From an uncultured virus (IMG/VR IMGVR_UViG_3300034157_000062) (Duplodnaviria > Heunggongvirae > Uroviricota > Caudoviricetes), in IMG/VR virus record IMGVR_UViG_3300034157_000062: a DNA stretch of 64,000 nucleotides. One strand, written 5' to 3'. A model generated the notes under the pieces. The model saw only the letters and a program-made list of their open reading frames with translations, was not told the origin of the DNA and ran no database searches. Position 1 is the stretch's first letter, and each line of letters starts with the position of its first letter. This document shows, one piece after another, positions 7,754-55,364 of the stretch. Position numbers and translations under genes: made by a program.

Positions 7754-8548
7754 TTAGATTAGCCCCATCTCAATAACTTTAAGATAATCAAGCTTGACTT
7801 CTAGATTCATTTTATTCAGATCTGAATTATTCATATTCAAGTTTTCTATTAATAAACTATCAATATGCTCGTTCATCTTTTCAATACAGCCTTGTGTTAT
7901 ATTTAACAACTCAGACTCATGATTATGTTTGTTATCTGTATGTATATCAAGATACATGTAATATCTCTTTTTAGCAGTGAATGGAAACGCTATCAACAAT
8001 ACTGGATGTATGTCATTATTCTTAATGATGAAAACAACATCGACATTCAGTGTCTTTTCATAAATCATTTTTCCCCAAAAATCATCAAACTCCGCCATAA
8101 CATTTGAAAAAGTAATCGAACCTGCTGGTCTAAATGAACTTTTTTTGTTAATTAGTGTGCTTTTAAATTGTTCTTCTACTGAAAAGTTACCTATTGTAAA
8201 CTCTTTAATAAAACCATATTCAATACATAAATCAGTCACTTCTTTTAACACTCTATTAACAAGTTCATAGTCATAATTTTTTGAACGAAATAATTCATCA
8301 ATGACTGTATTGGTTACATAGTTAAAAGCCATTGTGCAGATGTATTCATACTGTGTATTCGGAATCATTCTATCTGGGGTTTCTTTGGTAAATACACAGG
8401 CCAGCGTACTGGTATTCCTTTGAACACTTTCATCAATGCCTACAATACGGTATTCATGATAGGTGTCTTTGGGATGTAAATACTTTTCAAATGGTGTGTT
8501 ATCAAACATTTTTTTGTACGCTGATAACAATATATCTCTATCTAACAT
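7754..8548 (-). CDS. Family B paralog; C-terminal EMxxI tag
   Basis: NYDYELV, IHP, DIH motifs; ends KLDYLKVIEMGLI. Confidence 0.8.
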   Translation of the reverse strand: MLDRDILLSAYKKMFDNTPFEKYLHPKDTYHEYRIVGIDESVQRNTSTLACVFTKETPDRMIPNTQYEYICTMAFNYVTNTVIDELFRSKNYDYELVNRVLKEVTDLCIEYGFIKEFTIGNFSVEEQFKSTLINKKSSFRPAGSITFSNVMAEFDDFWGKMIYEKTLNVDVVFIIKNNDIHPVLLIAFPFTAKKRYYMYLDIHTDNKHNHESELLNITQGCIEKMNEHIDSLLIENLNMNNSDLNKMNLEVKLDYLKVIEMGLI

Positions 8549-8564
8549 TAGGCCACCTCTTAAC

Positions 8565-9410
8565 TTAAATCATTGTCATCTCAGCGACTTTTAAATAATT
8601 CAATTTATCTTCAAAGGTCAGTGTTTCTAAAAATTTGTTTTTTAATTTTAATTCTTTACGAAGAATCATATCAATCCGCTCTTTTAATGTTTCATCAAGT
8701 TTTTCCAAGCCTTCTATTATCTTCTTTTCGTTAAACTCTTTTGCAGACGGATGAATGTCTAATGTAATCCCTTGTGTATGATTAATAGATACTGGAATTG
8801 AAACCAACGCAAATGGATGTATTTCACCATCTTTTACTACAAATTTGTAATAGACAGAAAGTCTTCTACTTTTCAGTTTACCTTTAAGAGCATTCTTCTT
8901 TGTTTTAAAGAAGTCGGTAAAGTTAATTTCGGATACTTTTATTCCAGTAGAAGTTAACTTGTTTGATTTTCCATTGGCTTGATAAGGAGCTTTAAAGAAA
9001 TTTTGTAGGCGTAAATCACCTATTGTGTCCATTGAGTCAAATAGTCCATAACCATGACCTATTTTATAAAAAGCATGGATAGCTTCATGAATAACATCAT
9101 AATTGTAATTGACGTTTTCAAAAAAAGAAGCGACCATTTTTTTATTCATATTAGCAAATTGAAATAAGCAATTGAAATCATAGTCATGATCTTTATACAT
9201 ATAATTATTGTTTTTTCCAAATCCCATCTGGATTGTTTGTTTAACATTTTCATCTTGTATTGATATGTCAGCATTTTGGATTTTATTTATGGCGATAATA
9301 GAACCAATGCTAGTCTGTCCACTTGCATCATAGAAGGATGGTTTATCAAAAAGAGTTCCATTGAATATTTTCAAGTAGGCTTCTAAACAAGTGATTTGAT
9401 CTTGATTCAT
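8565..9410 (-). CDS. Family B paralog; C-terminal EMxxI tag
   Basis: NYNYD, IHP, DIHP; ends KLNYLKVAEMTMI; start set at the GGAG-led ATG at 9410. Confidence 0.8.
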   Translation of the reverse strand: MNQDQITCLEAYLKIFNGTLFDKPSFYDASGQTSIGSIIAINKIQNADISIQDENVKQTIQMGFGKNNNYMYKDHDYDFNCLFQFANMNKKMVASFFENVNYNYDVIHEAIHAFYKIGHGYGLFDSMDTIGDLRLQNFFKAPYQANGKSNKLTSTGIKVSEINFTDFFKTKKNALKGKLKSRRLSVYYKFVVKDGEIHPFALVSIPVSINHTQGITLDIHPSAKEFNEKKIIEGLEKLDETLKERIDMILRKELKLKNKFLETLTFEDKLNYLKVAEMTMI

Positions 9411-9441
9411 TATTGACTCCATGAGTTTATCGACAATTTTA

Positions 9442-10272
9442 TCATATTTCTGACATTTCAGCAATTGTTAAATAATCTAGCTTCTCATCTATTGATAATT
9501 TTGATATTACCTTTGATTCCAAACCAAGTTCTTTTTTGAGCACCTTATTTATTCTATTTTGTAGTAATATATCCAACTCAACATAACGAGTCTTAATTTT
9601 TTGCTCTGAATCTTCGTCATTATCAGGATGTATATCTACAATTGTTCTTATGCTGACGTTAGGTGATATTGGAAACTCGATTATCGCTAATGGGTGTAAC
9701 TTGCTATTTATTAACATCATGTCGTAATGAACAGTAAGGTTTTTACCTTTTAATTTTTTTCGTGAACCCGGAGTCTTGTGAAGATCAGTTTTATAAAAGT
9801 TAGAAAACTGTATATTCGAAACGGTTCGAGAAGCAGATGTCGCCATTCTCTCACCATTTGACATGATAGAGCGTGTGGTAAGACCGTCTTCTATCTTAAA
9901 GTTTTTGATAGGTTTCATTGATTTAAATAGTTTATAACGTTCGCCTAATTTATAAAACTCTTTAATTGTTTTAATGATAAGATCATAATTATAACGATTA
10001 GCATCCAATAATTCGGATATCATCTGGTCGTTCATATTGATAAAGCCAACTGTGCATTCACAATCAACGTTTTTTAGATCAAATCTAAATCTGTTACTGA
10101 ACCCACAAAATATTTTGCTCACATTGTTAGACGTATTCATGTTATTTAGAAAACTAGCAACAATCGTAGAGGTAAACCATCGTTCATCATCACTAAAAAC
10201 AAGGTCAATAGTTTCTACAGTTTTAAAAGTATCTGAATAGGCGGTTAAAAATAGATCTTTATGCTCTGTCAT
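9442..10272 (-). CDS. Family B paralog; C-terminal EMxxI tag
   Basis: YNYD, LHP, DIHP; ends KLDYLTIAEMSEI; GGAG-led ATG at 10272. Confidence 0.8.
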   Translation of the reverse strand: MTEHKDLFLTAYSDTFKTVETIDLVFSDDERWFTSTIVASFLNNMNTSNNVSKIFCGFSNRFRFDLKNVDCECTVGFINMNDQMISELLDANRYNYDLIIKTIKEFYKLGERYKLFKSMKPIKNFKIEDGLTTRSIMSNGERMATSASRTVSNIQFSNFYKTDLHKTPGSRKKLKGKNLTVHYDMMLINSKLHPLAIIEFPISPNVSIRTIVDIHPDNDEDSEQKIKTRYVELDILLQNRINKVLKKELGLESKVISKLSIDEKLDYLTIAEMSEI

Positions 10273-10343
10273 TCTTATCTCCATAATCTACTAATTATAT
10301 CAAATTTCAGCTACTTAATCAATAATTACGTGTATTTTTTGAA

Positions 10344-11141
10344 TTAGATTTTGTTCATTTCAAGTACAGGGATATAACTTATTTTATCGTTTAATGACAT
10401 GTTAACGATTTCATCTTTTTTAATTTTAAGACTTCTATTTAATAAACCATCTAAGTGTTGCTCAAATTTTATAGTAACTTCATTTTTCAATTCTTCTAGA
10501 ACTTTTAATTGATTTTCTTTTTGAGATGGGTGTAGATTTATAGTTGTCATAAAATTATATGATGCACAATATGGAACAAATAAATACATTATTGGATGAA
10601 GTTCATTATCTTCGTTTATAAGAAATTGAATATTGTAATATATGAATTTGTTTAATGTTTTAATGCTTGAACCTTTTTCTTTTAAAAATGTTGATAGTTT
10701 TACCTTTGCTATATTTTTTAGACTTGTATAACGTTCATCACCGTTATTGGTAAAAGCTTCACTGATTTTAATGTTTTTTATTGTTGATATCTCTTGATAG
10801 AATTCAAAACGTTTACCAATATTAAAAATTTCTTTGATAATCTCATTAACTAACAAGTAGTTATAATTTTGAGCATCAATCATTTCATCGAAATATCTAT
10901 CTGGCATATTGGTGAACCTAATATCACAGGTATCCGTATATTCTATATTGTGAACTTTTACAGCATTTTGAGAAAAGGTTAAAGTTGTATAGTAGTTAGA
11001 TATAGTCTTATTTGGATTATTGTAAATACCGATAATTTGAGAAAGTGATTCATTGTTTTTTTGCACAATTTTAGTATCAATTGCTTTATCTTTTAAAAAG
11101 TTATTAAAAACTATTAAATATTGATCAGCTTTACTACTCAT
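10344..11141 (-). CDS. Family B paralog; C-terminal EMxxI tag
   Basis: NYNY, ELHP, INLHPS; ends KISYIPVLEMNKI. Confidence 0.8.
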   Translation of the reverse strand: MSSKADQYLIVFNNFLKDKAIDTKIVQKNNESLSQIIGIYNNPNKTISNYYTTLTFSQNAVKVHNIEYTDTCDIRFTNMPDRYFDEMIDAQNYNYLLVNEIIKEIFNIGKRFEFYQEISTIKNIKISEAFTNNGDERYTSLKNIAKVKLSTFLKEKGSSIKTLNKFIYYNIQFLINEDNELHPIMYLFVPYCASYNFMTTINLHPSQKENQLKVLEELKNEVTIKFEQHLDGLLNRSLKIKKDEIVNMSLNDKISYIPVLEMNKI

Positions 11142-11168
11142 ATATTTCACCTTTTATCCATTTAAATA

Positions 11169-11945
11169 TTATATTTTTGACATTTCTATAACAGGTATGT
11201 AATTTAATTTTTCATCTAATGCCATTTGAGATACATCAATATCGTCTACATTTAAATGACGATGAATATTGCTATCCAGTTGTTTTTCTAAAATATCTCT
11301 AAATTTTTCTTTTTCAATAACCATTTGATTAATTTGATCAGCCTTTTTTGAAGGATGCAAATTGATAGTAACTTTTACAAATGTTCTGTTAGCATATGGA
11401 AATTTCAATTCTATGATGGGATGAATTTCATTACTTTCTTTATTTTCCATCTTGAAATTAACATTAGAGATGATTTGTTCTACTGAACAATAGTCATTAT
11501 CAAACATGGCATCTGGTGTTATGTTCGCTATATTAACTGCCTTTTTTATAGACAATTCAAAAAAACTAGATACTTTTATTTTTTTATTTATTTTCATTTT
11601 TTTATAAATCTTAAAATCTTGTCCTATTTTAAAAAAATCATTAACAACTTCATATATTAAATCATAACTATAATCTGACTGATCTAGTATTTCTGTTATT
11701 TTATCTTGCATTATCCGTGAAAAATTTAAGGTACAATCACAGTTATAAGTAGTAGAAGCTATTTTAACACCTGTTCGATAGTTTTGAAAAATGCATTCAA
11801 TATATCCATTATACACATCTAGATTATGATCTATTCCAAATGAATTTTTAATAACATACACATCACCATCTTGTTCAGTGGTATTGTTTGGATTAATAAA
11901 ATTACCAAACATTTCATTGTAAGCATTTAAGTAATTGTTAGTCAT
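11169..11945 (-). CDS. Family B paralog; C-terminal EMxxI tag
   Basis: DYSYD, EIHP, INLHPS; ends KLNYIPVIEMSKI. Confidence 0.8.
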   Translation of the reverse strand: MTNNYLNAYNEMFGNFINPNNTTEQDGDVYVIKNSFGIDHNLDVYNGYIECIFQNYRTGVKIASTTYNCDCTLNFSRIMQDKITEILDQSDYSYDLIYEVVNDFFKIGQDFKIYKKMKINKKIKVSSFFELSIKKAVNIANITPDAMFDNDYCSVEQIISNVNFKMENKESNEIHPIIELKFPYANRTFVKVTINLHPSKKADQINQMVIEKEKFRDILEKQLDSNIHRHLNVDDIDVSQMALDEKLNYIPVIEMSKI

Positions 11946-12006
11946 CTTCACTCCTGATATATGTTTCAAATTTTTTTTGTTATATATTAAAATAAATATT
12001 TCAATT

Positions 12007-12783
12007 CTATATTCTTGCCATTTCTATAACAGGAATATAATTTAATTTTTCTTGCGTTGTCATTGTTATTAAATCTTCTTTTTTTAATTTAAGTTTTCTT
12101 TTTAAAACAGTATTAAGTTGTTCTTCCAATTCAGCAGTAAAATCTTTCTTTATTTGAATTAAATTTTTTATTTGTAATTCTCGCTGTGATGGATGCAAGT
12201 TAATAAAGCAAATAAAGTCGGCAGTTGAAGAGTAAGGGAAAAACAATGTAATGATTGGAAAGATTTCATTATTTTCAGACAAATAAAAATTTAAGTGTTG
12301 TTTCGATATCTTTTTCAAAGGATTATCATCTGTATATTTATCTGTTAAAAACCCTGATAATGTTAATTTTGTCAAGTTTTTAGAGCTGTTTCCTCTAGGA
12401 TAGCCGTTCTTCATGAAAGAGTCTTCTAATCTATTATTTTTAATAGGTGTCATACCTTTATAAAAATTATATGATTTACCTATTTTAAAGAGTTCATTGA
12501 TGGTTTTATCAATTAGGTCGTAATTATAGTTTTTAGCGTCAAATAGTTCTTTAACAGGTTGTTTAGATAAATTTTTAAAAGAAATATTACAAGTACAACT
12601 ATAAGGCTTTGACATAATATTAACATTGACTTTATGAAATCTACAAGACACAAATAGGCTCATTATATCGTAACCATAAATGGTTTTTGTTTCTGTCTTA
12701 TCAATATGATCTTCAGTAGAAAAAGGTTTTTGTCCAAAGAAATCATTAAATATTTCTACATAATTTGGTTCTTTATTGTTCAT
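12007..12783 (-). CDS. Family B paralog; C-terminal EMxxI tag (TAG stop)
   Basis: NYNYD, EIFP, INLHPS; ends KLNYIPVIEMARI-TAG. Confidence 0.8.
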   Translation of the reverse strand: MNNKEPNYVEIFNDFFGQKPFSTEDHIDKTETKTIYGYDIMSLFVSCRFHKVNVNIMSKPYSCTCNISFKNLSKQPVKELFDAKNYNYDLIDKTINELFKIGKSYNFYKGMTPIKNNRLEDSFMKNGYPRGNSSKNLTKLTLSGFLTDKYTDDNPLKKISKQHLNFYLSENNEIFPIITLFFPYSSTADFICFINLHPSQRELQIKNLIQIKKDFTAELEEQLNTVLKRKLKLKKEDLITMTTQEKLNYIPVIEMARI

Positions 12784-12811
12784 TTTTTACACCTTCTTAA
12801 TGTCGTTAAAT

Positions 12812-13600
12812 TTAAATTCTAGCCATCTGGACAACGGGAAGATAATTCTTTTTCTCTTCTAGCGTCATCTTAGACAATTCATTTTTCTTAATTTTTAAAA
12901 ATTTTGTTAGAACAAAATCTAAATGTGTAATCAGCAAACTTTCAAATTCTTTCAAAATAACAGGAATATGCTTAATTTGTTCATCTCTTTTGGATGGATG
13001 AAGATTAATTGACATTCTAGTAAATTTTGAGACTGAATAGGGGATTGCTAAGTTTAATACAGGATGAATTTCATTATCATCCGATATCATAAAAGCCAGA
13101 TGAACGATTGCAGTTTTCTTTGTCGGCTTCCCACTGGCGTTTTTGTCGGCTAATACTGTTGAAAGTGCTAACTTTGTCACTGTAGGGACAAATACGGCCT
13201 TTTGTATTCCATTCTTATTGAAGTTATTTTCCAACTTAATATTTTGAATAGGTGACATTTCAGTATAGAAGCTAAAATCTTTACCTAATTTAAATAGCTC
13301 ATTGATGATTTGTTCAACTACATCATAATTATAATCGTTGTCTCTAAAAAGGTAGGCGACATCACCCTCACTCATATTCGTTAAATGAAAGCTACAATCA
13401 TTCTTATAGATAGTGTCTGCGATAGTGACAGGAAATGCACACTTTTTAAAATGACAACGAAGTATTTTATTATCAAAAGGTGAATTGTTCATGACATTGT
13501 AATCACCACGTTCATTTCTTATAGTAGTGTATTCAGGTCTAATAGACTTTCCAAAAAAATCACTGAAAGCTTCAATGTGTTTTAGTTCTTGTTCTTTCAT
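12812..13600 (-). CDS. Family B paralog; C-terminal QMxxI tag
   Basis: DYNYD, EIHP, INLHPS; ends KKNYLPVVQMARI. Confidence 0.8.
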   Translation of the reverse strand: MKEQELKHIEAFSDFFGKSIRPEYTTIRNERGDYNVMNNSPFDNKILRCHFKKCAFPVTIADTIYKNDCSFHLTNMSEGDVAYLFRDNDYNYDVVEQIINELFKLGKDFSFYTEMSPIQNIKLENNFNKNGIQKAVFVPTVTKLALSTVLADKNASGKPTKKTAIVHLAFMISDDNEIHPVLNLAIPYSVSKFTRMSINLHPSKRDEQIKHIPVILKEFESLLITHLDFVLTKFLKIKKNELSKMTLEEKKNYLPVVQMARI

Positions 13601-13612
13601 TGTAGTTATTCC

Positions 13613-14188
13613 TTAAATTTTAATCATGTGGAACAGTTCCAACTCTTCTTTTGAATACTTATTTAGTGGCTTTTCCAAAAAGAATTGAAACAGTTGCTGA
13701 TAAAAATCTTCATAAATTTTATCAACAGCAATATTTATTTTTGTCAACTGACTTGGATACAAATAAAACGAGAAGGAAGCCGCAATAGTTTGTACTTTTA
13801 TCGTTGGAACTGCATACAATTTTTTAGAACGCTTGTTGTAATAAAAATAAGGTTCTTCTAGGTAAATACGCACATTTCTATCATTTTTTATAAGGGATTC
13901 ATATTTTTTAAAGAAAGCCATGTTTTCTTCATAGACTTCAATAATTTTATCGTATACCTCTTTATTTGACGCTTCAAAAATTTTATCATAGTTTTCTGGT
14001 GATTCTCTTTTTCTGATAGAAGCTATGTTCCCGTTACTTAAATTTGCAAAAGGATAGGGATAAGAACCATCGTTAGCTTCATCACTGTAAAGCCAAATCT
14101 CTGAATCTGTTTTGTTGTCAGGTTCAGGTATTCTGACTTCTTTTTTATCTTTGTTAATAATCTCTAAAATTTTTTCTTCAAGTGTCAT
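13613..14188 (-). CDS. Hypothetical protein with C-terminal MxxI tag
   Basis: GAGG SD; ends YSKEELELFHMIKI. Confidence 0.7.
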   Translation of the reverse strand: MTLEEKILEIINKDKKEVRIPEPDNKTDSEIWLYSDEANDGSYPYPFANLSNGNIASIRKRESPENYDKIFEASNKEVYDKIIEVYEENMAFFKKYESLIKNDRNVRIYLEEPYFYYNKRSKKLYAVPTIKVQTIAASFSFYLYPSQLTKINIAVDKIYEDFYQQLFQFFLEKPLNKYSKEELELFHMIKI

Positions 14189-17258: not shown

Positions 17259-17990
17259 TTGACAATGAATATAAAATCATTTTTTCAATCGTTCTACATA
17301 AAAAACTATTATACTCTTAGTATGTTGATTAGTACAATATTTATTACACTTGGATTATTTATTCCAAAGACAGTGAGTGATTTTCAAAATAATGAATTAT
17401 TTTTTAAATTAACAGAATATTTTTTTATTATTATTTTTAGTATTATATTTATTTTTAGCCTATTCATGTATATAAAAAGCTTTTTTATACATTTATTTGT
17501 TGTTCGAAATAGTAAAGATACTGCAAAATTTCAAAAAATCCTTTTTTTTGCAATTGTTTTTTTAAAACTATATCTTTATGCTAATATATTTAAACTCAAT
17601 AAAAACGATGGTCAAATTTATTCTGATGACTATTTGTATTCGTGTATTTATTTTGTTCATACATTATATATAGCGAGTCTTTTATTATTTATTTCTTTTT
17701 ATATTTATGATTTTACAATATTTTTAAAAAAAGAGTTGGATTCGTGTCATTGGATAGATAAATATCTGGCGTACAACCAGATAAGAAACAAGAAAAACAT
17801 TAAAATAGACGGTAAAATTGTCTCTATTCATTTTAATGGGTTTTCATTGAATGAGTTATCAAATACGCTTACATTCATGAATAATGATTTAAAAATATCT
17901 TCATTTAGAGCGTATATGGATGAAAATAAATATAAATTAAATGATTTAACATATGAAGAAGTATTAATAATAAAAATGATAGGAATTTGA
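17259..17990 (+). CDS. Family C 4-TM membrane protein; C-terminal MxxI tag
   Basis: Four hydrophobic segments; HWI..YL..xQ, FRxY; ends NDLTYEEVLIIKMIGI. Confidence 0.78.
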   Translation: MTMNIKSFFQSFYIKNYYTLSMLISTIFITLGLFIPKTVSDFQNNELFFKLTEYFFIIIFSIIFIFSLFMYIKSFFIHLFVVRNSKDTAKFQKILFFAIVFLKLYLYANIFKLNKNDGQIYSDDYLYSCIYFVHTLYIASLLLFISFYIYDFTIFLKKELDSCHWIDKYLAYNQIRNKKNIKIDGKIVSIHFNGFSLNELSNTLTFMNNDLKISSFRAYMDENKYKLNDLTYEEVLIIKMIGI

Positions 17991-18724
17991 CCATTATGAA
18001 AATGAAATCAATATTACCAGAATTCTACTTTAAGAACTACCATTCTTTTGTATTGTTCAATGCTGCCCTTTTTCTTATTATGGCTTTGCCTTTTCCTGAA
18101 CAAGACGACTGGTCACTCAATGGTATGCGATATTTCTTAGAATTCCCCATTATGTTCATTCTGGCCGCACTTATTATTTGGAACTTATGTTTGTATTCAA
18201 AAAGTTTTATTTCAAAGTCTTATTCTTCAATACAACATAATATGTCGGACTCTTTGACGGTTTATTCAGTGTATGGAGTTGTCCTCTTAAAATCAATGTT
18301 TCATGTCTTGTGCCTTTCTTCTTATGTTAATGAAACCAATGTGATCAAGTTTCCATCGCAAGACTGGATGTTAGGAACCATGTGTTTATTTTATTTTATG
18401 TACATTGTGGCAATAGGCCATTTTGTTTTTCTTTCAATTAAGGGGACTTATATTCGATATATGTCACCTGTGACGAATAACCACTGGATTATGGATTTCT
18501 TAAATCCTAAACAGTTACGCAAAGTTAAGAATGTTTCAGCTAACGGACAAATCGTATCTGTTTATTTTAAAGGATTTCTTCTTGATGAAACGGATAACAG
18601 TGTGATCATTAGAAAACATAAACTTAAATTGAATGCATTTCGAGACTACATAACCATGAATAATTTTAAAGTTGATGATTTAAGTGATGAAGAACTTACA
18701 GTTATCGAAATGTTAGGTATATAG
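17987..18724 (+). CDS. Family C 4-TM membrane protein; C-terminal MxxI tag (TAG stop)
   Basis: HWI, KQ, FRDY; ends DDLSDEELTVIEMLGI-TAG. Confidence 0.78.
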   Translation: MTIMKMKSILPEFYFKNYHSFVLFNAALFLIMALPFPEQDDWSLNGMRYFLEFPIMFILAALIIWNLCLYSKSFISKSYSSIQHNMSDSLTVYSVYGVVLLKSMFHVLCLSSYVNETNVIKFPSQDWMLGTMCLFYFMYIVAIGHFVFLSIKGTYIRYMSPVTNNHWIMDFLNPKQLRKVKNVSANGQIVSVYFKGFLLDETDNSVIIRKHKLKLNAFRDYITMNNFKVDDLSDEELTVIEMLGI

Positions 18725-18740
18725 CAAAGGAGTTTCATAG

Positions 18741-19454
18741 ATGAAAGAACTGTTCACAAAAAAACATTTCAAAGATAATGCTTTGTTTGTTTTATTCGCT
18801 TCTACTTTTATTTTTGGATGTACGTTTTTTTTGATGAATATAAGAAATGTTATTTTTGATAAAGATAGTGCTAATTTTGATCAACCTACCGCTTTTTTTT
18901 ACAGTTACTTATTATTTAATTCTTTAATAGGCATTGTATTTAATTTATTTGTGTTAGTTCGCAATATTTTATCGGGTAGTTCATCCATTATCTCAGGTGG
19001 TGAATTTTATATAAAATTAAGAAAATATTTCCTTATTATAATTTTTTTAAATGTAGTGACTATATTCTACACTTGTGCAAGTGAAAATTTAAATCAAATA
19101 GTCTATATTATTTTATTTGGGATAACTAGCTTGTCAAATATTATATTTTTAGTGCGAACCATTCCTTTTTGTGAATTAGATGGTCTTGCTAAACAAGCTC
19201 ATTCAGTTGACCATTGGGTGTATCCATATCTAAACGATAAGCAATTGAAACAGCTTAGGATCGTCAATGAAACCAATAATCAATTTATGATTGCATTACC
19301 TAATATTGTATTATCCGATGGTGGTAACTGGTTAAGGTATTATGAAAACGAATACAATCTTTCATCATTTAGAAGTTATATTGAAACCAAATCTTGTAAA
19401 TTAAATGATTTAAATAAAGACGATTTTATAATTATATCTATGTTAGGTATATAA
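18741..19454 (+). CDS. Family C 4-TM membrane protein; C-terminal MxxI tag
   Basis: HWV..YL.DKQ, FRSY; ends NDLNKDDFIIISMLGI. Confidence 0.78.
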   Translation: MKELFTKKHFKDNALFVLFASTFIFGCTFFLMNIRNVIFDKDSANFDQPTAFFYSYLLFNSLIGIVFNLFVLVRNILSGSSSIISGGEFYIKLRKYFLIIIFLNVVTIFYTCASENLNQIVYIILFGITSLSNIIFLVRTIPFCELDGLAKQAHSVDHWVYPYLNDKQLKQLRIVNETNNQFMIALPNIVLSDGGNWLRYYENEYNLSSFRSYIETKSCKLNDLNKDDFIIISMLGI

Positions 19455-19456
19455 AA

Positions 19457-20167
19457 ATGTTAAATAAAATTAGTATACCGAGTTTCTACCTGTATAATTA
19501 TCACTCTCTCAATATTGTAGCGTGTTTACTTGTGATTGCTTTCAGGTTTATTGTGGGTGATAACTATTTTTCATCAATGCCCTACATTGATAGTTTTATC
19601 CATTATTCATTAATAGTAATGATTGTTATCAATACAGTGATGCTCATTAAATCATTTATGATGAAAACTTACACAAGTATTAATGAGACACCAAAAGATA
19701 CTTATCTCATTATGGCTTTTATTATCCTTATGTCTTTTAAGTCATGTATAATGATGCTTACATTATTTAGTTGGATTATTAATTTTAAAAATGATTATAT
19801 GAATGGAACAATTGATGTTATAATAGGTTGTTTTTTTATCATGTATTTTATTTTATATCTATTCTTTTTATATTTTGGATTCCTAGGTATTAGAACTAGA
19901 ATTAAACACGTTAAGATTAATAATCACTGGGTCTTTCAGTATTTGAGTGACAAACAAATCAGAAGTGTTAAAACTTATCAGGAAGAAGGTAAAGTGATCG
20001 GCCTTTACTTTAAAGGCTTCTTTATGGATGAAGATAAGAATAGCTTAGTCATTAAAGATAAAAAAATAACACTCAGCGATTTTAAAATGTATATTAAAGA
20101 AAAAGATTGTAAAATTGATGACTTGACCCAAGAAGATATTGCAATCATGGAAATGTTAAGTATTTAA
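19457..20167 (+). CDS. Family C 4-TM membrane protein; C-terminal MxxI tag
   Basis: HWV..YLSDKQ; ends DDLTQEDIAIMEMLSI. Confidence 0.78.
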   Translation: MLNKISIPSFYLYNYHSLNIVACLLVIAFRFIVGDNYFSSMPYIDSFIHYSLIVMIVINTVMLIKSFMMKTYTSINETPKDTYLIMAFIILMSFKSCIMMLTLFSWIINFKNDYMNGTIDVIIGCFFIMYFILYLFFLYFGFLGIRTRIKHVKINNHWVFQYLSDKQIRSVKTYQEEGKVIGLYFKGFFMDEDKNSLVIKDKKITLSDFKMYIKEKDCKIDDLTQEDIAIMEMLSI

Positions 20168-20198
20168 ATGTGTCATAATAATTTATTGGAGATATTAA

Positions 20199-21437
20199 AT
20201 GAAGGATATTGTAGACAGGTTAGAAAAAAGAACAAAATATTTGTGGCGTGCTGCTTTCTTTGGATCTGCACTATTCTTTCGTATTACCTTTGAAGGTGAT
20301 TATAAAGAATATCTTACTTGGTCAGTTTTTTTTGTGTTTTTTGTTATTGACCATTTGATAGGCTATGCTATTAGATGGATGTATAAAATAGAACCATCCG
20401 CTATTATTGATATTGTAAAATCAATGGGAATTACAGGAATACATAAAGGTATTGATACTTATGGATACAGTGAAGATTACATTAGGTCATACTGGTTTTT
20501 CCCAGAAGAGTCGAAAGCGTACACTTATTATAAGCGTGATCGATATGGTTTTAACACTCCTGATGACTATAAATTTATGTATATTTCTTTATATGACAAG
20601 AAAAAAAGAAATAATGATAAAATTGAAGTCTATAAAATGTTGACCCGAAGCCGATACATAAAGAAGACAACAGACAATTTAAAAACAATGGAACTTAGTA
20701 TTAAATTAGAGCTATCATACATCAATGATCAATTTGTCTTAAAAAATCATTACAATAGGGATGATGTTGCGTCTTTGCATGTTGATGAAGCCTTTTCCTA
20801 TTTTCATAAATTTGTAGAAGATATTAAAGTATTATTTGACCCAGATGATTTTTACCATTTTATGAAAGATAGCTCTTTTGAACTTGAAATTTCAACTAAA
20901 ATAAAAAGAAATTTACTAGTCAGCTCAAAGACAGATGGCATTAAAAAATATCGTTTAAATGTCAAATGGGCTGATAATATAGGATCTCTGAAACTAGGTA
21001 AATTTAGATGGTGTTTTAAAGATGGTTCCGCAATAGAATTTCATGATTACAGTGAACTTATTTCCGATTACAAAAAGAAAAATAAACCGTTACCTGAATG
21101 GCTTGTCATCGAAAAATACTACGTTTCAATAATGTTTAATAGACTTATAAGCATATATAGTGATAAATTAGATGAATACGCCGTATACAGTGATTCAGAA
21201 GTTGTTGAGAAATGGAAGAAAATAGTGATTAAAGAAAAATTAAAAATGAAAAAACGAATAGAGGTTCTTAAAAATAAAGTAAAACAACGAACCTATAAAA
21301 AGGTTAAACCAGAAGATATTAAATTTTGGGAAAATCGATCATTAAAAAAGCAGTTAAATAGTACGAAAAGAATTATCAATCTCAAAAAAAAGATAAATAA
21401 AAGAACTTACAAAGTTAAAGTATCAATTAATAAATAG
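20199..21437 (+). CDS. Membrane-anchored hypothetical protein (paralog of 21440..22660)
   Basis: Two N-terminal TM segments; shared YSEDY, NDKIEVYK, LELSYIN, PDDF, LNVKW; Lys-rich tail. Confidence 0.75.
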   Translation: MKDIVDRLEKRTKYLWRAAFFGSALFFRITFEGDYKEYLTWSVFFVFFVIDHLIGYAIRWMYKIEPSAIIDIVKSMGITGIHKGIDTYGYSEDYIRSYWFFPEESKAYTYYKRDRYGFNTPDDYKFMYISLYDKKKRNNDKIEVYKMLTRSRYIKKTTDNLKTMELSIKLELSYINDQFVLKNHYNRDDVASLHVDEAFSYFHKFVEDIKVLFDPDDFYHFMKDSSFELEISTKIKRNLLVSSKTDGIKKYRLNVKWADNIGSLKLGKFRWCFKDGSAIEFHDYSELISDYKKKNKPLPEWLVIEKYYVSIMFNRLISIYSDKLDEYAVYSDSEVVEKWKKIVIKEKLKMKKRIEVLKNKVKQRTYKKVKPEDIKFWENRSLKKQLNSTKRIINLKKKINKRTYKVKVSINK

Positions 21438-21439
21438 TA

Positions 21440-22660
21440 GTGGAGTTTCGAATGATAGACATTATAGAAAAATTCAGTAAACTAGCTCGATATTCATGGC
21501 GAATAGTAGCGATACTATATCTAAATTTTAGTGATTTTAAATTGGAAGGGTGGGCTGGAATGCTTAATCTTTTCCTTTTTATTGTTGGTTGTGTTGTCAT
21601 TGATTTCTCAATTGGGTTCTTTATTCGATGGGTTTACAAGTTTAAACCAACATCATTAAAAAAGATACTTAAATCAATAAATATAGAGGGTATACAAAAT
21701 AAGATGAGTGAGTGTAGTTATAGTGAAGACTACTTACTTTCACGATGGTTCATACAGTTTTCTTCAGACGAATATAGAAGTTACATGAATGATAAAGATA
21801 GACATCCTTTTAAAAATTATAAATTTAACTATATCACACTATATAATAAGAATAATAACGATAAAATTGAAGTTTATAAAACACTTCCTAATTATAAAAC
21901 AACGTCAACGTCAAGTTTAAAAAATATGTCAATAGATGTCGTATTAGAATTGTCTTATATTAATGAGACTTTTGTTATTAAAAATGAATATCCATCTGAT
22001 CTACTAGGTTCTTTAATTACAGCAGATACCTTTTTTCAATTTGACAATTTTATAAACAATCTAAAAATTTTGTTTAATCCTGATGATTTTTCTAATTTAA
22101 TGAAAGAAAGCTCTTTTGAAATTGTAGTCAGCAACGACTTTCAAAGAAACTTAATAACGCCTAATACATACGAAGGCATTAGAAGTTATAGTTTAAATGT
22201 TAAATGGTCAACTAATATAACATTTATGAATATTTCGCAATATAAACCATGTTTTGCTTCAGGTGAAATCTTTCGTTTTGTTGACTACACACAGTATATT
22301 GCTTACTGCAAAAACAATAATATAAATATCAAACGAGAAATAAAAGAGCGTTATGTTTATTCAATGTTTGAAAAAATATTTGATCAATATGAAAGCAACA
22401 GAATTAAAAAATTAATTAATTATGAGAAATCATATGATGATGAAGATGATGAAACAGTAGTTGAATATGAAACAGAAGATAAAACACTCAATTATGAAAA
22501 TTCAGATGATATTGAATTTTTTAAAAAGACAGTTATTAAAAATAAAAATCTATTAAAAAGAAAGATTATTTTCAAAGACCATGTAAATAATAGTAAATAT
22601 ATTAATAAGTTTAAACTGATTGCATTATTCATGGCAAATAATCAAAATAAATTAAAATAA
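21440..22660 (+). CDS. Membrane-anchored hypothetical protein (paralog of 20199..21437)
   Basis: Same shared motifs; acidic patch near the C-terminus. Confidence 0.75.
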   Translation: MEFRMIDIIEKFSKLARYSWRIVAILYLNFSDFKLEGWAGMLNLFLFIVGCVVIDFSIGFFIRWVYKFKPTSLKKILKSINIEGIQNKMSECSYSEDYLLSRWFIQFSSDEYRSYMNDKDRHPFKNYKFNYITLYNKNNNDKIEVYKTLPNYKTTSTSSLKNMSIDVVLELSYINETFVIKNEYPSDLLGSLITADTFFQFDNFINNLKILFNPDDFSNLMKESSFEIVVSNDFQRNLITPNTYEGIRSYSLNVKWSTNITFMNISQYKPCFASGEIFRFVDYTQYIAYCKNNNINIKREIKERYVYSMFEKIFDQYESNRIKKLINYEKSYDDEDDETVVEYETEDKTLNYENSDDIEFFKKTVIKNKNLLKRKIIFKDHVNNSKYINKFKLIALFMANNQNKLK

Positions 22661-23593: not shown

Positions 23594-23685
23594 TAAATAC
23601 CTATATGATTTTTCAGTATATCAATAATGAAATATTTTATCAATATTGAAACATCAAAAAAGCCACCCGTAGGTGGCGTTTCGTC

Positions 23686-26211
23686 TTATTGTTGCTCGAC
23701 ATCATGACAATTAACACATAAGTCATCAGTGCAAAGATGTTTGAAGTAATTCCAACAACGATCACACTTCTTGAAATCATGCTTGAATAGCTCTGTATTA
23801 TCATTTTTAACCACATGCACATTACCCAGCAACAAAGATAGGACATTCTGTTCATCAAGGCTTAAAACGCTGTTTAAATGAAGTGTCATCTCATTGTTCT
23901 TTGACATCACTTTACTTGCTCGACCTTCTTCAAACAGTTTATTTGCCACATCTCTCAGTTCCAACACTGTGTCAAAACGTGTTTTATCCAATTCAACAAC
24001 AACATCATCAAGAAGCTGTTCCATAAATACAGATAATCCAGAATAGCTTTCAAGACTTCTATAATATTCTTCTGTGGAATATGGAAGATAGGTAGACAAC
24101 AATACCATTAAGTTATGCTGCAAGTGATTTAACACTGATTGTGTCAACCTTCTTCTTGGTGCATCAGGAGCTAAACAATATAATCTATCTTTGTTAGCTT
24201 CAAAATAAAGCACACTTAATTTATCACAGAAACCATACAATAAAGTTAAGGCTTCATTAAACTTGTATTCATCGCCTAGCTTTAATACAGTCTTTTTAAG
24301 ATCATTCATTTCATTCAGCACATACTTATCTAATACATCCATATCCTTTGTATTTAATGTCTTCTCTGGTGTATAGTCATACAAGTTCTGCAACATAAAT
24401 CTGTACGTGTTTCTAAACTTCTTATACATTTCAGTCGCAGCTTGTAAGGTGCTTTCAGAATAAGTCAATTCTTTATGATAGTCTTGGTTAAGACACCACA
24501 ATCTTAATACATCAGGACTGTGTTGTTTCAACAAGTCTTGTAAGGCTACATAGTTACCTAATGACTTAGAAAACTTCATCCCTTTTGAATCCACAACAAA
24601 GCCATGAGTAAACACTTGCTTGTAAGGTGCTTGATTATTTAAAGCCGTTGAAGTCAATAGAGATGATTGAAACCAGCCACGGTGTTGATCAGAACCTTCT
24701 AAATATAAATCAGATTGAGTGGTGCCGTAGTTTCTTTTCATTACGGTGGTGTGTGTCATTCCACTGTCAAACCAGACATCTAATGTTTGGGCTGAAAAAT
24801 CTTCGGTATACAAGGCAGCCAAACCTTTATTTTTCACAACATCTACCCATCCTCTATATTCAGCAAGAGCTTCTGGTGTTTTGTTTCTTGGTAGTGGAAC
24901 TCCCCATAGTCTATTTCTAGATACACACCAGCTATTACGAGTAGCCAGCATAGAGGTCAGTCTATTCTTGCCATTGCTTGGGAAGAACGTAACATCTTCG
25001 ACTTCTTCAAGAGCTTTTTCTTTTACATTAGACAGATCCATAAACCATTCTTTGGAAGCTTTTGAAAATAATGGAGACTTATGACGCCAGCAGTGTGGAT
25101 ACTCATGTTCAAGTTTAGTTAAGTTGAAAACAAGATTGTCTTCTTGCAATTTAGCCAAGACAGCCGCCGCAGAATCTTTTAAATTCATGCTTTGAAGTTC
25201 TGGACACTCTTCGGCGTCGTATTTACCATAATTATCTACATAGCTTTTAACATCCAGATTATGAGATTCACCTAAATAGAAGTCATCAAGACCAAAAGAT
25301 GGAGCCACATGCACAAGTCCAGTGCCTGAATTTTCTACGAAATCAGCTTGTAATAAAGGCACCATCTTTTTGCTGTATGGACTTTGAACAGAAAGGTTAT
25401 CCAAGTTAACGTCTTCAACATAATCGAGTTGGTTATCCACTTCATCATTTTTCAATGACACATAGAACTTGTTTCTTTCCTTACTGTAATATTTGGCATA
25501 AGTAAATCTTTTATTATACGCAACAGCTTGGTTTGCGGGTAACGTATAGGGTGTTGTTGTCCAGACCAGTAGATAAGTATCATCATTGAGTTTAAATTCA
25601 ACGGTTACGCTGTCAGATGTTTTCATTTTGTATTCAACCTCAGCTTCTGCTAATGAAGACTGGCAGTCTTTACACCAGTGAACAGGTCTGAATTTTTGAT
25701 GGAGATAATTTTTATCTAACAAACTAAGCACAGCTTCCATTTCTTCGGCTTCACGAAAGAATTCATTTGTTTTATAGGACTTATCAAAATCGGCCAACAT
25801 CCCAAACTCTTTTAACTGGGATAATTGATTGGCGACTTGTTCATTAGAGTATTGATAGCAATGATTCAAGAACTCTTGTTTATTACCTTTTCCACTGTGT
25901 AGTTTTTCAACCGCTAATTCGACAGGTAATCCATGACAGTCAAAACCATTGTTGAAAGGAGCGTAATAGCCATTGAGACGTTTAAATTTTAAGACAGTAT
26001 CTTTCAATACCTTGTTGGTGAAGTGTCCAAGATGAAGATCACCGTTCGCGTAAGGCGGGCCATCATGCAGAAGGAATAAAGGTTTTTGATTTTGTTGTTC
26101 TAAAAAGTCTTTCATTTCCTGACTGTTCCAACAATCAAGATAACTCGATTTATCAAGAAACTTCTCGTTAAGATTGAAAGTGACCTTTTTCATGTTTAGA
26201 TTGTATTTCAT
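23686..26211 (-). CDS. ileS: Isoleucine--tRNA ligase, type 1 (compact, 841 aa)
   Basis: HDGPPYANGDLHLGH, WTTTPYTLPAN, GTGLVHVAP, WCVSRNRLWG, EGSDQHRGWFQSS, KFSKSLGN, C-terminal CDRC...CVNC zinc site. Confidence 0.96.
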   Translation of the reverse strand: MKYNLNMKKVTFNLNEKFLDKSSYLDCWNSQEMKDFLEQQNQKPLFLLHDGPPYANGDLHLGHFTNKVLKDTVLKFKRLNGYYAPFNNGFDCHGLPVELAVEKLHSGKGNKQEFLNHCYQYSNEQVANQLSQLKEFGMLADFDKSYKTNEFFREAEEMEAVLSLLDKNYLHQKFRPVHWCKDCQSSLAEAEVEYKMKTSDSVTVEFKLNDDTYLLVWTTTPYTLPANQAVAYNKRFTYAKYYSKERNKFYVSLKNDEVDNQLDYVEDVNLDNLSVQSPYSKKMVPLLQADFVENSGTGLVHVAPSFGLDDFYLGESHNLDVKSYVDNYGKYDAEECPELQSMNLKDSAAAVLAKLQEDNLVFNLTKLEHEYPHCWRHKSPLFSKASKEWFMDLSNVKEKALEEVEDVTFFPSNGKNRLTSMLATRNSWCVSRNRLWGVPLPRNKTPEALAEYRGWVDVVKNKGLAALYTEDFSAQTLDVWFDSGMTHTTVMKRNYGTTQSDLYLEGSDQHRGWFQSSLLTSTALNNQAPYKQVFTHGFVVDSKGMKFSKSLGNYVALQDLLKQHSPDVLRLWCLNQDYHKELTYSESTLQAATEMYKKFRNTYRFMLQNLYDYTPEKTLNTKDMDVLDKYVLNEMNDLKKTVLKLGDEYKFNEALTLLYGFCDKLSVLYFEANKDRLYCLAPDAPRRRLTQSVLNHLQHNLMVLLSTYLPYSTEEYYRSLESYSGLSVFMEQLLDDVVVELDKTRFDTVLELRDVANKLFEEGRASKVMSKNNEMTLHLNSVLSLDEQNVLSLLLGNVHVVKNDNTELFKHDFKKCDRCWNYFKHLCTDDLCVNCHDVEQQ

Positions 26212-26255
26212 TTTGACATCTCCTAATTTGGGTAATTTAATTTATTTTCGGCAAT

Positions 26256-26289
26256 AAAAAAAGGCACTTGGTTTTGACCGAGTGCCTTT
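26256..26289 (-). terminator. Attenuator terminator in the ileS leader
   Basis: AAAGGCACTCGG-tcaaaa-CCAAGTGCCTTT followed by TTTT, 45 nt before the ileS ATG. Confidence 0.85.
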
Positions 26290-26311
26290 GAATTAACAAC
26301 AACTTATCCTG

Positions 26312-26374
26312 TTAGCTCATTGGCAACTTATGGATAATAATAATGCTGTTTACGAATGTATTTAAGGTTTTCAT
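26312..26374 (-). CDS. ileS leader peptide MKTLNTFVNSIIIIHKLPMS
   Basis: 20-aa ORF with four tandem Ile codons ATT ATT ATT ATC, between the promoter and the terminator. Confidence 0.88.
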   Translation of the reverse strand: MKTLNTFVNSIIIIHKLPMS

Positions 26375-26404
26375 GGTATATTTAATCTCTTTTAATTAAT
26401 TACA

Positions 26405-26433
26405 ATCATATAACAATTGACCCGTAAAGTCAA
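26405..26433 (-). promoter_or_regulatory. sigma70 promoter of the ileS leader
   Basis: TTGACT-17-TATGAT; overlapped by the inverted repeat AATTGAC-N7-GTCAATT. Confidence 0.75.
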
Positions 26434-26434
26434 T

Positions 26435-27427
26435 TTATATTTTAGCTGCCTTAAACAATTTAACATTGTTCTTCAAGTCTACTTTAAACTGATCCTTTAC
26501 AATATTAAAAAGCTGTCTCACTCGTTCTTTTGTCAAACCACACATTCCTGCGATTTCAGTTTGATTTTTTGAATCAAGAATATTAATCATCATTTTAAAG
26601 TGATTATTGTTAGTTCTTTCAAAGACTGTATCCACTGACAGTTGGTAGACTTGACGCAAAGCTGGTTCAATAGATTGCATAACAAATGGCTTTTGAATTT
26701 CATCTTTAATAATCTCTTTGATAACTTTTTGAGAAGAAGTCATTTTCAAGTCGAACTTGTCAAACAAAGACAGCACTTTAATTTTTTTATCCGTCAACTC
26801 GTTGTTATCTCGCTTCACTATCTCTCTTTTCAAGAATGAAAGGATGTCGAATGTAACTTCGCTGACTTCCATTGATTCATCATCAATTTCATTGTTGAAT
26901 TTATAGAGTTCAATATCATCACAGGAACGATAGAACTCTTTCAATAGTTCATACGTCAACATGTCTTCAACAATAAGATATTCATAGTCAGCTTCAACTA
27001 AAACACTACGTTTGGTTTCATCAATGTTTTCATCATGCCAACGTCTTTTTAAATCGCGTGCCCACTCTTGGAATTTTTTGTCAGTGGCATAACGTAAAGG
27101 AATCTTGGTGCTTAGATGTTCTTGAAGCATAGGGAAATAAGTATCCCAATGATCACGAGGGGATAGCACACCGGATTCAGCCAAGATTTTTTTTACTTTG
27201 TTTCGTTTTTCTTCATTTTTCTGGTTAGTTGATGAATGTGATCGAATCCAATTAATCAGTGTGACGCCATTAACTTGATAATCAGTAGGCGGAAGTTTAC
27301 CTTCCTTATTAATGAAACCTTCAGCAGCTTCATACATTTTATCCCAACGAGCATCGGGCGTTAATGCTTTATATGCTTTTATAGTTTCTTCTGTATTAAG
27401 TTCCATTAACTTATCCTCTATTATCAA
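26435..27427 (-). CDS. Putative DNA-binding protein: Trp-patterned helical repeats plus C-terminal sigma70 region-4-like HTH
   Basis: RWDKMY...F...GKLP...LINWI pattern; C-terminal QTEIAGMCGLTKERVRQL. Confidence 0.6.
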   Translation of the reverse strand: MIIEDKLMELNTEETIKAYKALTPDARWDKMYEAAEGFINKEGKLPPTDYQVNGVTLINWIRSHSSTNQKNEEKRNKVKKILAESGVLSPRDHWDTYFPMLQEHLSTKIPLRYATDKKFQEWARDLKRRWHDENIDETKRSVLVEADYEYLIVEDMLTYELLKEFYRSCDDIELYKFNNEIDDESMEVSEVTFDILSFLKREIVKRDNNELTDKKIKVLSLFDKFDLKMTSSQKVIKEIIKDEIQKPFVMQSIEPALRQVYQLSVDTVFERTNNNHFKMMINILDSKNQTEIAGMCGLTKERVRQLFNIVKDQFKVDLKNNVKLFKAAKI

Positions 27428-30054: not shown

Positions 30055-30495
30055 ATGACATTAAAAGATGAAATATCACAAGCACGAATCAAAGCATTGA
30101 GAGAAAAAGATAACCTTACTAAAACAGCAGTAGGTTATATTCTTTCCGCTATCAAACAACAAGAAGTGGATACAAAAAAAGAAGTGACTGATGTGGATGT
30201 CATTGCTATTTTGAAGACGTTGATTCGTCAACGTAAAGACTCCATTGAAAAATATCCTGATATTAAAGAATTGGTAGAAAGAGACTCCGCAGAAATTGCT
30301 CTATTGTCTAAATACATGCCAGTTCAATTATCGGAAGATGAAGTAATGTTGATTATTCGAGACGGTATTGTTGCAGCTAGAGCTGTTAAACCTATTGTTG
30401 CATCGGGTGAAGTCATGAAGCTGATTAAAGATAAGTTACATGGTAAGACAGACATGAGTAAAGTAAAAGGGTTGGTCGAAAAAGAACTTGGTTAA
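30055..30495 (+). CDS. yqeY: GatB/YqeY domain protein
   Basis: MTLKDEI..ALREKD..SAIKQQEVD..RQRKDSIE..YMPVQLSEDEV..GKTDMS. Confidence 0.88.
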   Translation: MTLKDEISQARIKALREKDNLTKTAVGYILSAIKQQEVDTKKEVTDVDVIAILKTLIRQRKDSIEKYPDIKELVERDSAEIALLSKYMPVQLSEDEVMLIIRDGIVAARAVKPIVASGEVMKLIKDKLHGKTDMSKVKGLVEKELG

Positions 30496-54902: not shown

Positions 54903-55364
54903 TTATACACACTGAAATTTCTTGGTGATTTGTTTTACTTGTTCTTTGGTGCAAGGCCCAATACCCAAAGCGGTAATGATTGGCGATCCATCAAAGTGTG
55001 GTGGTAAAACGTGACCTTGATCGACAATAATTGAACATGGCAATCCAGCAGCAATAGCTTGGTTATATGCTTTGATTAAGTGATCTTCGTTTTTGGCTTT
55101 TAACGTAACCTTAGATCCGCCTGATTGACGATTTCTATAATGTTTGACGTTATCTGGGTGTGATTCTTGTGCGTTTGTTAATGCATCTGTATAAGCATGA
55201 CCAGCTTGAGCTGCGAGCTTACCCGTTGGCATGTTTAAATCGCCGCGAATGATTGAATAGATATAGTAATGTGAGTCTTTGTCCGAAGGAACAAATTGAG
55301 TGTATTGGCTAAGAATAGCCTCTTTGGTGATGAAGTCGAATTCAGTATTATCAATCTACAACAT
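54903..55364 (-). CDS. pth2: Peptidyl-tRNA hydrolase type 2, with an in-frame TAG at codon 3 (predicted readthrough)
   Basis: YIYSIIRGDLNMPTGKLAAQAGHA, KVTLKA, IVDQG, TALGIGP. The conserved first strand lies upstream of the ORF-track ATG. Start reads AAGGAG-N8-ATG TTG TAG ATT GAT AAT (TAG at 55358-55356). Confidence 0.88.

Follow-up and report, generated by a model that had tools for sequence, protein, structure and literature searches.

The 64,000-nucleotide stretch of DNA considered here (the window; IMG/VR record IMGVR_UViG_3300034157_000062) carries on its minus strand an ileS gene whose product, an isoleucyl-tRNA synthetase (IleRS), contains no isoleucine. The gene is preceded by a short leader open reading frame (ORF) with a run of four Ile codons and by an intrinsic terminator. 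We conclude that this leader is very probably a ribosome-mediated leader-peptide attenuator that senses charged tRNA-Ile and controls the Ile-free IleRS. Attenuation itself is textbook knowledge, and the main addition made here is its pairing with a synthetase that is free of its cognate amino acid. This pairing is a design principle and not a single oddity, because 87 of the 88 clusters in the clade of the window enzyme hold 0-3 Ile, a second clade, from phages, shares the layout, and valyl-tRNA synthetase (ValRS)-like genes follow the same rule.

The course of events that we infer runs from leader translation through termination or readthrough to a response to tRNA charging. Transcription would start at a promoter-like site upstream of the leader. 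With no ribosome on the leader, or with one that has reached the leader stop codon, the terminator would form and polymerase would halt at about 26256. Were Ile-tRNA(Ile) scarce, a ribosome would stall at the first Ile codons, covering the 5' arm of a protector helix and leaving 26328-26310 free; this segment would pair with 26298-26281 before the 3' arm of the terminator exists, and polymerase would continue into ileS. The ileS mRNA would be translatable with Ile-tRNA nearly absent, because ileS has no Ile codon. A preliminary description of this DNA had taken ileS to be a standby copy induced when charged tRNA-Ile falls. The lack of any Ile in the regulated IleRS argues strongly for such induction, and it would make the putative standby copy a coherent design, common to a broad clade and to huge phages.

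The leader and its alternative structures

The promoter, leader, three helices, terminator and ileS gene that the preliminary description had listed are all present, as the minus-strand sequence and the folds confirm (Table 1). The Ile codons of the leader, ATT ATT ATT ATC at 26344-26333, are the sole Ile codons in the reading frames of the leader ORF and ileS, and the leader stop codon, UAA at 26314-26312, lies within the 5' arm of the antiterminator. The end of the terminator U-run at 26256 is 44 nt from the ileS ATG, and a promoter scan found no promoter-like site in this interval. All statements on conservation in the window rest on the DNA of one relative, L001 (an IMG/VR record), whose IleRS is 87% identical. 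In pairwise comparison with L001, the palindrome that overlaps the promoter-like site keeps its arms and differs at three spacer bases; it may be an operator, or a hairpin that closes the upstream gene.

Table 1. Features of the ileS leader region in the window, and identity to the relative L001
Feature	Coordinates	Strand	Remarks
Upstream gene, 330 aa	26435-27427	-	same strand as ileS; stop at 26435
Perfect palindrome AATTGAC-N7-GTCAATT	26415-26435		overlaps -35 hexamer; sole exact copy in the window
Promoter-like site TTGACT-17-TATGAT	26405-26433	-	10 of 12 consensus positions matched; both hexamers unchanged in L001; function putative
Putative leader ORF MKTLNTFVNSIIIIHKLPMS, 20 codons, stop codon included in span	26312-26374	-	four consecutive Ile codons
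Protector (1:2-like) helix	26295-26350	-	26350-26344 and 26337-26332 with 26309-26304 and 26301-26295; covers the Ile codons
Antiterminator	26281-26328	-	26328-26310 with 26298-26281; takes GGCA(CU) from the terminator 5' arm
Intrinsic terminator	26256-26288	-	hairpin 26288-26261, U7 at 26262-26256
ileS Shine-Dalgarno AGGAG	26220-26224	-	from the sequence
ileS, 841-aa type-1 IleRS without Ile codons	23686-26211	-	TIGR00392 score, codon count
Terminator 3' of ileS, GCCACC-TACG-GGTGGC and T6	23656-23677	-	-12.9 kcal/mol; U-run ends 30 nt past the stop codon
Intergenic leader versus L001			211/223 identical (94.6%)
Ile codons to U-run versus L001			94/95 identical
Leader stop to end of terminator U-run versus L001	26311-26256		56/56 identical
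ileS versus L001			2066/2526 identical (81.8%)
ileS third codon positions versus L001			514/842 identical (61%)
Upstream gene versus L001			710/993 identical

As first drawn, all three helices consist of canonical pairs only. The protector has an energy of -9.6 kcal/mol, the antiterminator (UGCC/UGAG/UAACA with UGUUA/UUCA/GGCA) one of -10.6 kcal/mol in that first version, and the terminator hairpin one of -14.8 to -15.2 kcal/mol; protector and antiterminator share 26298-26295 and hence are mutually exclusive. Folding of the alternative structures, a check proposed in the preliminary description, gave the following states. In the ribosome-free full leader, the minimum free energy (MFE) structure is protector plus terminator. 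With a ribosome stalled at Ile codon 1 or 2 and the RNA transcribed only up to the terminator 5' arm, the antiterminator is the MFE structure of the freed RNA (-13.0 to -14.0 kcal/mol), and in this extended form it takes 4-6 of the 12 bases of that arm. When the ribosome is placed at the leader stop, the terminator alone forms.

Shuffled sequences served as controls for these folds. The whole leader folds with z = -2.69, 2 of 200 shuffles being as stable. The energy of the protector was reached by 83 of 2000 shuffles and that of the antiterminator by 13 of 2000, three of which pair GGCA as well. When the antiterminator was folded with the whole terminator 5' arm, 67 of 3000 shuffles reached -14.0 kcal/mol, and 53 of 3000 combined the energy with at least six paired arm bases.

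The comparison with L001 sets a nearly unchanged leader beside flanking genes with many differences (Table 1). Within the 63 nt of the leader ORF there are two changes, one of them synonymous and the other His to Pro. By this comparison, the leader RNA of the window is under strong purifying selection.

An IleRS without isoleucine

The 841-aa ORF scores 656.3 bits against TIGR00392 (ileS; cut-off 621.4), and its best solved structural relatives are bacterial IleRS (8c9e, 8wnf and 1ffy). It has HLGH at residues 60-63 and KFSKS at 546-550, which we take to be the class I signature motifs, together with WTTTPYT at 217-223 and GTGLVHVAP at 296-304, presumably motifs of the editing domain; all of them are kept across the clade. 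Judged by its sequence, the ORF is a bona fide type-1 IleRS.

None of its 841 residues is Ile, and the gene has no ATT, ATC or ATA codon. In the remaining 68 ORFs of the window, 1525 of 17901 residues are Ile (8.52%), and no ORF has less than 4.2%. The chance of finding no Ile in 841 residues is about 3e-33 at the frequency of the window and about 1.5e-17 at 4.5%, the frequency in housekeeping IleRS.

A protein search placed this enzyme in a clade of about 840-aa proteins that comprises 88 clusters, of which 74 have no Ile, 13 have one to three and one has 20. The 32 longer, housekeeping-type IleRS matches of the same search have 37-59 Ile. The pairing of attenuator and Ile-free enzyme would resolve the paradox posed by such numbers, in that an Ile-stalled cell or phage could not otherwise make the IleRS that it needs. 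Among the members of the clade are second IleRS copies, found in Achromobacter and carried by Variovorax megaplasmids; the named ones (Achromobacter, Variovorax) are annotated as "class I tRNA ligase family protein" or "isoleucine--tRNA ligase". No Achromobacter-type copy was found at E <= 1e-180 in 396 scored genomes of one betaproteobacterial family.

Plasmid 2 of Variovorax sp. WDL1 (NZ_LR594690.1; locus L305, 2847-3001) encodes an IleRS paralogue with 0 Ile in 847 residues, and its neighbours have 1.9-8.8%. The paralogue is preceded by a 5' terminator (-15.9 kcal/mol) and by an antiterminator of 7 bp whose sequence repeats the terminator 3' arm. A candidate leader with a GTG start has Ile-Ile and one further Ile, the leader ORF being uncertain. 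This plasmid places an Ile-free IleRS in a cultured soil bacterium that is tractable for experiments.

Leaders of the same kind elsewhere

The preliminary description had suggested a search for Ile-run ORFs upstream of homologous ileS genes, and such ORFs were found. The 450 nt upstream of ileS were scanned for small Ile-run ORFs in 196 of 200 fetched loci. ORFs of 18-21 codons with four consecutive Ile codons (IIII) lie at L001/L164 and at L170, L171, L173, L175, L179, L185, L191, L192 and L200. IIII-leader attenuators are thus carried by 10 of 37 IMG/VR ileS loci and by one GenBank huge phage, and the earlier impression that control of this type is unusual on a phage-like element does not hold. 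The negative set was formed by 160 metagenome and genome-collection loci, found by patterns common to all IleRS and holding housekeeping ileS genes of about 33% identity. No IIII leader was seen in these 160 loci; III runs occur there in three ORFs, which look like the C-termini of an upstream gene.

Presence of the leader goes together with the Ile content of the enzyme. All 10 IMG/VR loci with an IIII leader encode an IleRS with 0-1 Ile, and no fewer than 15 Ile are present in any of the 143 ileS ORFs from bacteria or metagenomes. Among the 27 IMG/VR loci without an IIII leader, 25 encode enzymes with 7-93 Ile (the ORF being incomplete at the locus end in two of them), and the remaining two, L167 and L168, have one Ile and a different, Ile-containing leader that begins MKTLN. 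In L167/L168 (2390-2495), the leader MKTLNLIKNIRIIKAR stands before an 851-aa IleRS with 1 Ile, and its first five residues are those of the window leader. Downstream of it is a strong hairpin that has no canonical U-run. Pairing is possible between the 5' part of this leader and the Shine-Dalgarno region of ileS, and the arrangement may be a translational variant.

Nine phage contigs encode an IleRS of 735-742 aa with 0-1 Ile (the L170 ORF is cut by the contig end). In a tree these enzymes form one tight clade, and their leaders fold with the same order of parts. The consensus structure of the phage-clade leaders has 94.1% of cells paired and 10 compensatory pairs; none of 500 shuffles reaches this, and slid controls drop to 29-53%. 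The phage antiterminator is a 6-9-bp copy of the terminator 3' arm (CCUUGG) and takes 6-10 bases of the arm. From leader stop to terminator the distance is 21-30 nt in all 10 loci, the window having 23 nt. The same arrangement is found in an uncultured phage of 634,780 bp (GenBank LR745206.1), whose leader is MNFNTIIIIRYSIPWSIPIG and whose 735-aa IleRS is free of Ile.

Two further candidates, L190/L196, were set aside as unconvincing: their IIII ORF begins at a TTG, a clear terminator is missing, and the IleRS that follows has 69 Ile in 1092 aa. A pattern scan of IMG/VR for the phage-type switch returned 100 stretches, of which 80 were fetched and three were real, all on known contigs; the other fetched stretches were chance matches in coding sequence without a U-run. 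A search with Rfam in 20 of the 37 viral ileS loci gave tRNAs only. A 253-kb IMG/VR contig has, at about 600 nt upstream of its ileS, an amber-suppressor tRNA with a CTA anticodon, which ARAGORN labels tRNA-Pyl (L181, 1851-1924).

Further, the same phages carry other synthetase genes of this design. ValRS-like genes of 442-509 aa with 0 Val were found at L311 (1315-2991), L312 (1364-2838) and L313 (1380-2856), which are the records behind L179, L185 and L173. Their best NCBIfam match is valS, in each case below the full-length cut-off, and the Pfam match tRNA-synt_1 skips model positions 245-294. The ValRS-like genes of the L179, L173 and L185 records are preceded by VVV or VVVV leaders, MKHINSNNVVVVNRNPVC, MNINLNIVVVSTSVRCW and MNNKSENNLVVVTDIVKMLV. 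The hairpin downstream of the Val leader is a terminator with a U-run in L311 and L312; in L313 it is strong but has no clean U-run. Leucyl-tRNA synthetase (LeuRS)-like genes of 421-426 aa with 4.8-5.7% Leu are present at L314, L315 and L316. The one at L315 (1388-2772; 4.8% Leu) follows the leader MNTNLLLLADS and a terminator, and no such Leu-run leader was found before those at L314 and L316. Codon runs of three kinds, matched to three types of synthetase, are difficult to account for unless the cognate charged tRNA is being sensed.

In a quick tree, the window clade is sister to L169 plus the phage clade, with a Shimodaira-Hasegawa-like approximate likelihood ratio test (SH-aLRT) value of 90 (not starred); the shared lack of Ile could bias this placement. 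Phage and window IleRS are 33-36% identical, and the phage enzymes are without the C-terminal part of about 100 aa. Common descent of the window and phage leaders is possible. Separately, we note that UAUUGC follows the terminator U-run in the window (within 26212-26255) and in five of eight distinct phage leaders. An A-rich stretch comes next in the window and in all phage leaders, and the U-run can pair with the A-run.

Alternative readings, the carrier element and known systems

Several observations weigh against attenuation by Ile-codon reading in the window. The leader ORF has a weak Shine-Dalgarno sequence, AAGAG, 11 nt upstream of its ATG. The overlap of antiterminator and terminator amounts to merely 4-6 nt, and at equilibrium with the 3' arm present the terminator and the inner antiterminator coexist (-22.9 kcal/mol); the terminator wins at equilibrium, so that any antitermination could act only through kinetics. 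Pairing of the leader segment directly with the terminator arm gives -6.9 kcal/mol, which is at chance level (equalled by 344 of 1000 shuffles). Stalling at Ile codon 3 or 4 would place the ribosome over part of the antiterminator 5' arm. A simple terminator scan missed the 26288-26261 hairpin, which has a C.A mismatch, yet the hairpin is in the MFE fold. L001 is too similar for covariation to be seen in the window-type helices, and compensatory changes are seen solely in the analogous phage-clade leaders. With a covariance model built from the phage leaders, the window leader is recovered in its correct position and orientation, but at a weak score of 28.1 bits (E = 0.033), and reverse-strand terminator matches in the training loci score about as well.

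Some of these points would suit a terminator that is constitutive or under the control of a factor, such as a phage antitermination protein that serves temporal control, with the Ile-run ORF being incidental. Phage-like elements commonly combine terminators with antitermination factors, and such a factor would fit the weak overlap of antiterminator and terminator and the equilibrium advantage of the latter; the conserved palindrome at the promoter, too, suggests added control by a protein. Nonetheless, we regard this reading as improbable. Runs of at least four Ile codons are rare, with 12 in all six frames of the 64-kb window, and the present one lies in an ORF that runs from start to stop and is conserved base for base over the Ile codons. 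A second clade also has the IIII run in front of its Ile-free ileS, and there are runs of Val and Leu codons ahead of ValRS-like and LeuRS-like genes. The least probable of the alternatives is that the hairpin merely terminates the upstream gene at 26435-27427 while ileS is expressed separately. That gene is on the same strand and has no other terminator after it, but the U-run ends 179 nt past its stop, as against 15-71 nt for most same-strand terminators in the window; moreover, a conserved promoter-like site stands between gene and hairpin, and none follows between hairpin and ileS.

Direct binding of tRNA-Ile or IleRS to the leader, in the manner of a T-box or of thrS, or else translational control of ileS, is very unlikely in our estimation. 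The ileS gene is T-box controlled in Firmicutes and Actinobacteria, according to the available part of PMC1262725, and the start of the L167/L168 leader can pair with an ileS Shine-Dalgarno region. However, Rfam gives no match at the gathering score anywhere in the window, and no T-box is among the matches to 26100-26500 up to E 10; the Shine-Dalgarno sequence of the window ileS is unpaired in the folds; and a logic of regulatory codons is common to three synthetase types. A different matter is what the module is for. With the trigger unchanged, it might serve mainly as immunity or backup against IleRS inhibitors, Ile analogues or an attack on Ile-tRNA charging, and not against starvation; we hold this to be a real possibility, if the less probable one. 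An Ile-free enzyme would be immune to mistranslation at Ile codons, and the second IleRS copies known so far serve antibiotic resistance, as stated in the accessible text of PMC9437257. Members of the clade occur on a Variovorax megaplasmid, in huge phages and in an IMG/VR provirus record, all of them mobile or accessory DNA, and among the window genes are those for a T4-type RNA ligase/phosphoesterase fusion and for a PTH2 peptidyl-tRNA hydrolase. On the other hand, there are no inhibitor biosynthesis genes among the Pfam matches of the window, and the best structural matches of the enzyme are ordinary type-1 IleRS and not the type-2 resistance enzymes.

The contig that carries the window IleRS measures 1,917,244 bp; that of a relative in the same 90% cluster measures 1,859,102 bp. 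The GC (guanine plus cytosine) content is about 31%, and the genes of the window have Shine-Dalgarno sites and intrinsic terminators, that is, signals of bacterial type. For 38 of the 69 window ORFs there is no Pfam match at E <= 1e-5. Near-full-length PHROG matches were obtained for the RNA ligase/phosphoesterase fusion (7e-113), a ClpA-like protein (4e-232) and phrog_27142 (1e-102), and the phage-like label of the element would rest solely on such non-structural matches. No structural phage gene was seen in the window, and four hallmark Pfam families (two terminase, capsid and sheath) were not found in the 181-kb record of the relative, which IMG/VR classes as a provirus that is 58% complete; therefore we do not call the element a phage.

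Translation-related accessory genes of the window are those for the T4-type RNA ligase fused to a metallophosphoesterase (102-2321, plus strand; phrog_8238, E 7e-113), the PTH2-type peptidyl-tRNA hydrolase (54903-55232, minus strand) and a YqeY-like protein (30055-30495, plus strand). Eight neighbouring ORFs of about 190-300 aa at 7754-14188 (minus strand) and six of 236-412 aa at 17259-22660 (plus strand) are without Pfam or PHROG match. Both runs may be arrays of tandem paralogues.

We put the chances at about even that cognate-free synthetases behind leaders of their own codons constitute a class, undescribed and widespread, of emergency modules that bootstrap themselves and travel on mobile or accessory DNA. 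Its examples would be the Ile-free IleRS of the window's unclassified replicon of about 1.9 Mb, of huge phages and of Variovorax megaplasmids, and the Val-free ValRS-like proteins of huge phages. If this is true, the modules would restart translation after starvation, inhibitors or a host defence had made the charging of one tRNA collapse. Cultured Variovorax and expression in laboratory strains offer direct tests of the idea, which also bears on the use that huge phages make of their own synthetases. In the literature, from a search that left subscription journals mostly outside, we found no report of an ileS leader-peptide attenuator, of one in a phage, or of an Ile-free IleRS.

A close likeness to the window leader is seen in the IIII attenuators of the huge phages (L170-L200 and LR745206.1), which have the same order of parts, a similar spacing and an Ile-free enzyme; the phage leaders differ in being almost without a 5' untranslated region, and the phage ileS leader is A-rich and without a Shine-Dalgarno sequence. 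IleRS2 and MupA/MupB resemble the window enzyme as accessory IleRS on mobile DNA (PMC9437257, available part). The window enzyme, however, is of type 1, with 284 and 267 bits for MupA and MupB against cut-offs of 1900. For IleRS, the accessible text of that review of synthetase duplication gives IleRS2 and SbzA only. The ileS T-box is likewise a 5' RNA switch that couples ileS to the charging of tRNA-Ile (PMC1262725, in the part available), but it binds uncharged tRNA directly, and the window has no T-box match in Rfam. A His leader peptide before hisS paralogues in Bacillus (PMC2965389, accessible portion) provides another leader-peptide attenuator before a second synthetase copy and outside the classical proteobacterial operons; the amino acid is a different one, and cognate depletion is unmentioned in that portion. 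For attenuation of synthetase genes, pheST is the proteobacterial example in the available part of PMC1262725.

The assignment of the window leader to attenuation of the trp/pheST type, made in the preliminary description, agrees with its anatomy, with the geometry of its stop codon and with the comparative data. The enterobacterial leaders of ilvGMEDA/ilvBN, trp, his, leu and thr control biosynthetic operons. They share with the window the logic of protector, antiterminator and terminator, and a stop codon so placed that a ribosome finishing the leader favours termination. Antiterminator and terminator of the trp leader have the whole of region 3 in common; those of the window have only 4-6 nt in common, and the antiterminator 5' arm is located within the loop of the protector. 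In E. coli pheM-pheST, a short leader ORF with a run of cognate codons is followed by antiterminator and terminator hairpins, and the window likewise has a synthetase gene behind a cognate-codon leader and alternative hairpins. It differs from pheM-pheST in its amino acid and enzyme, in its phage-like or unclassified carrier, in the absence of sequence or Rfam kinship, and in the purging of the cognate amino acid from the synthetase that the leader would control.

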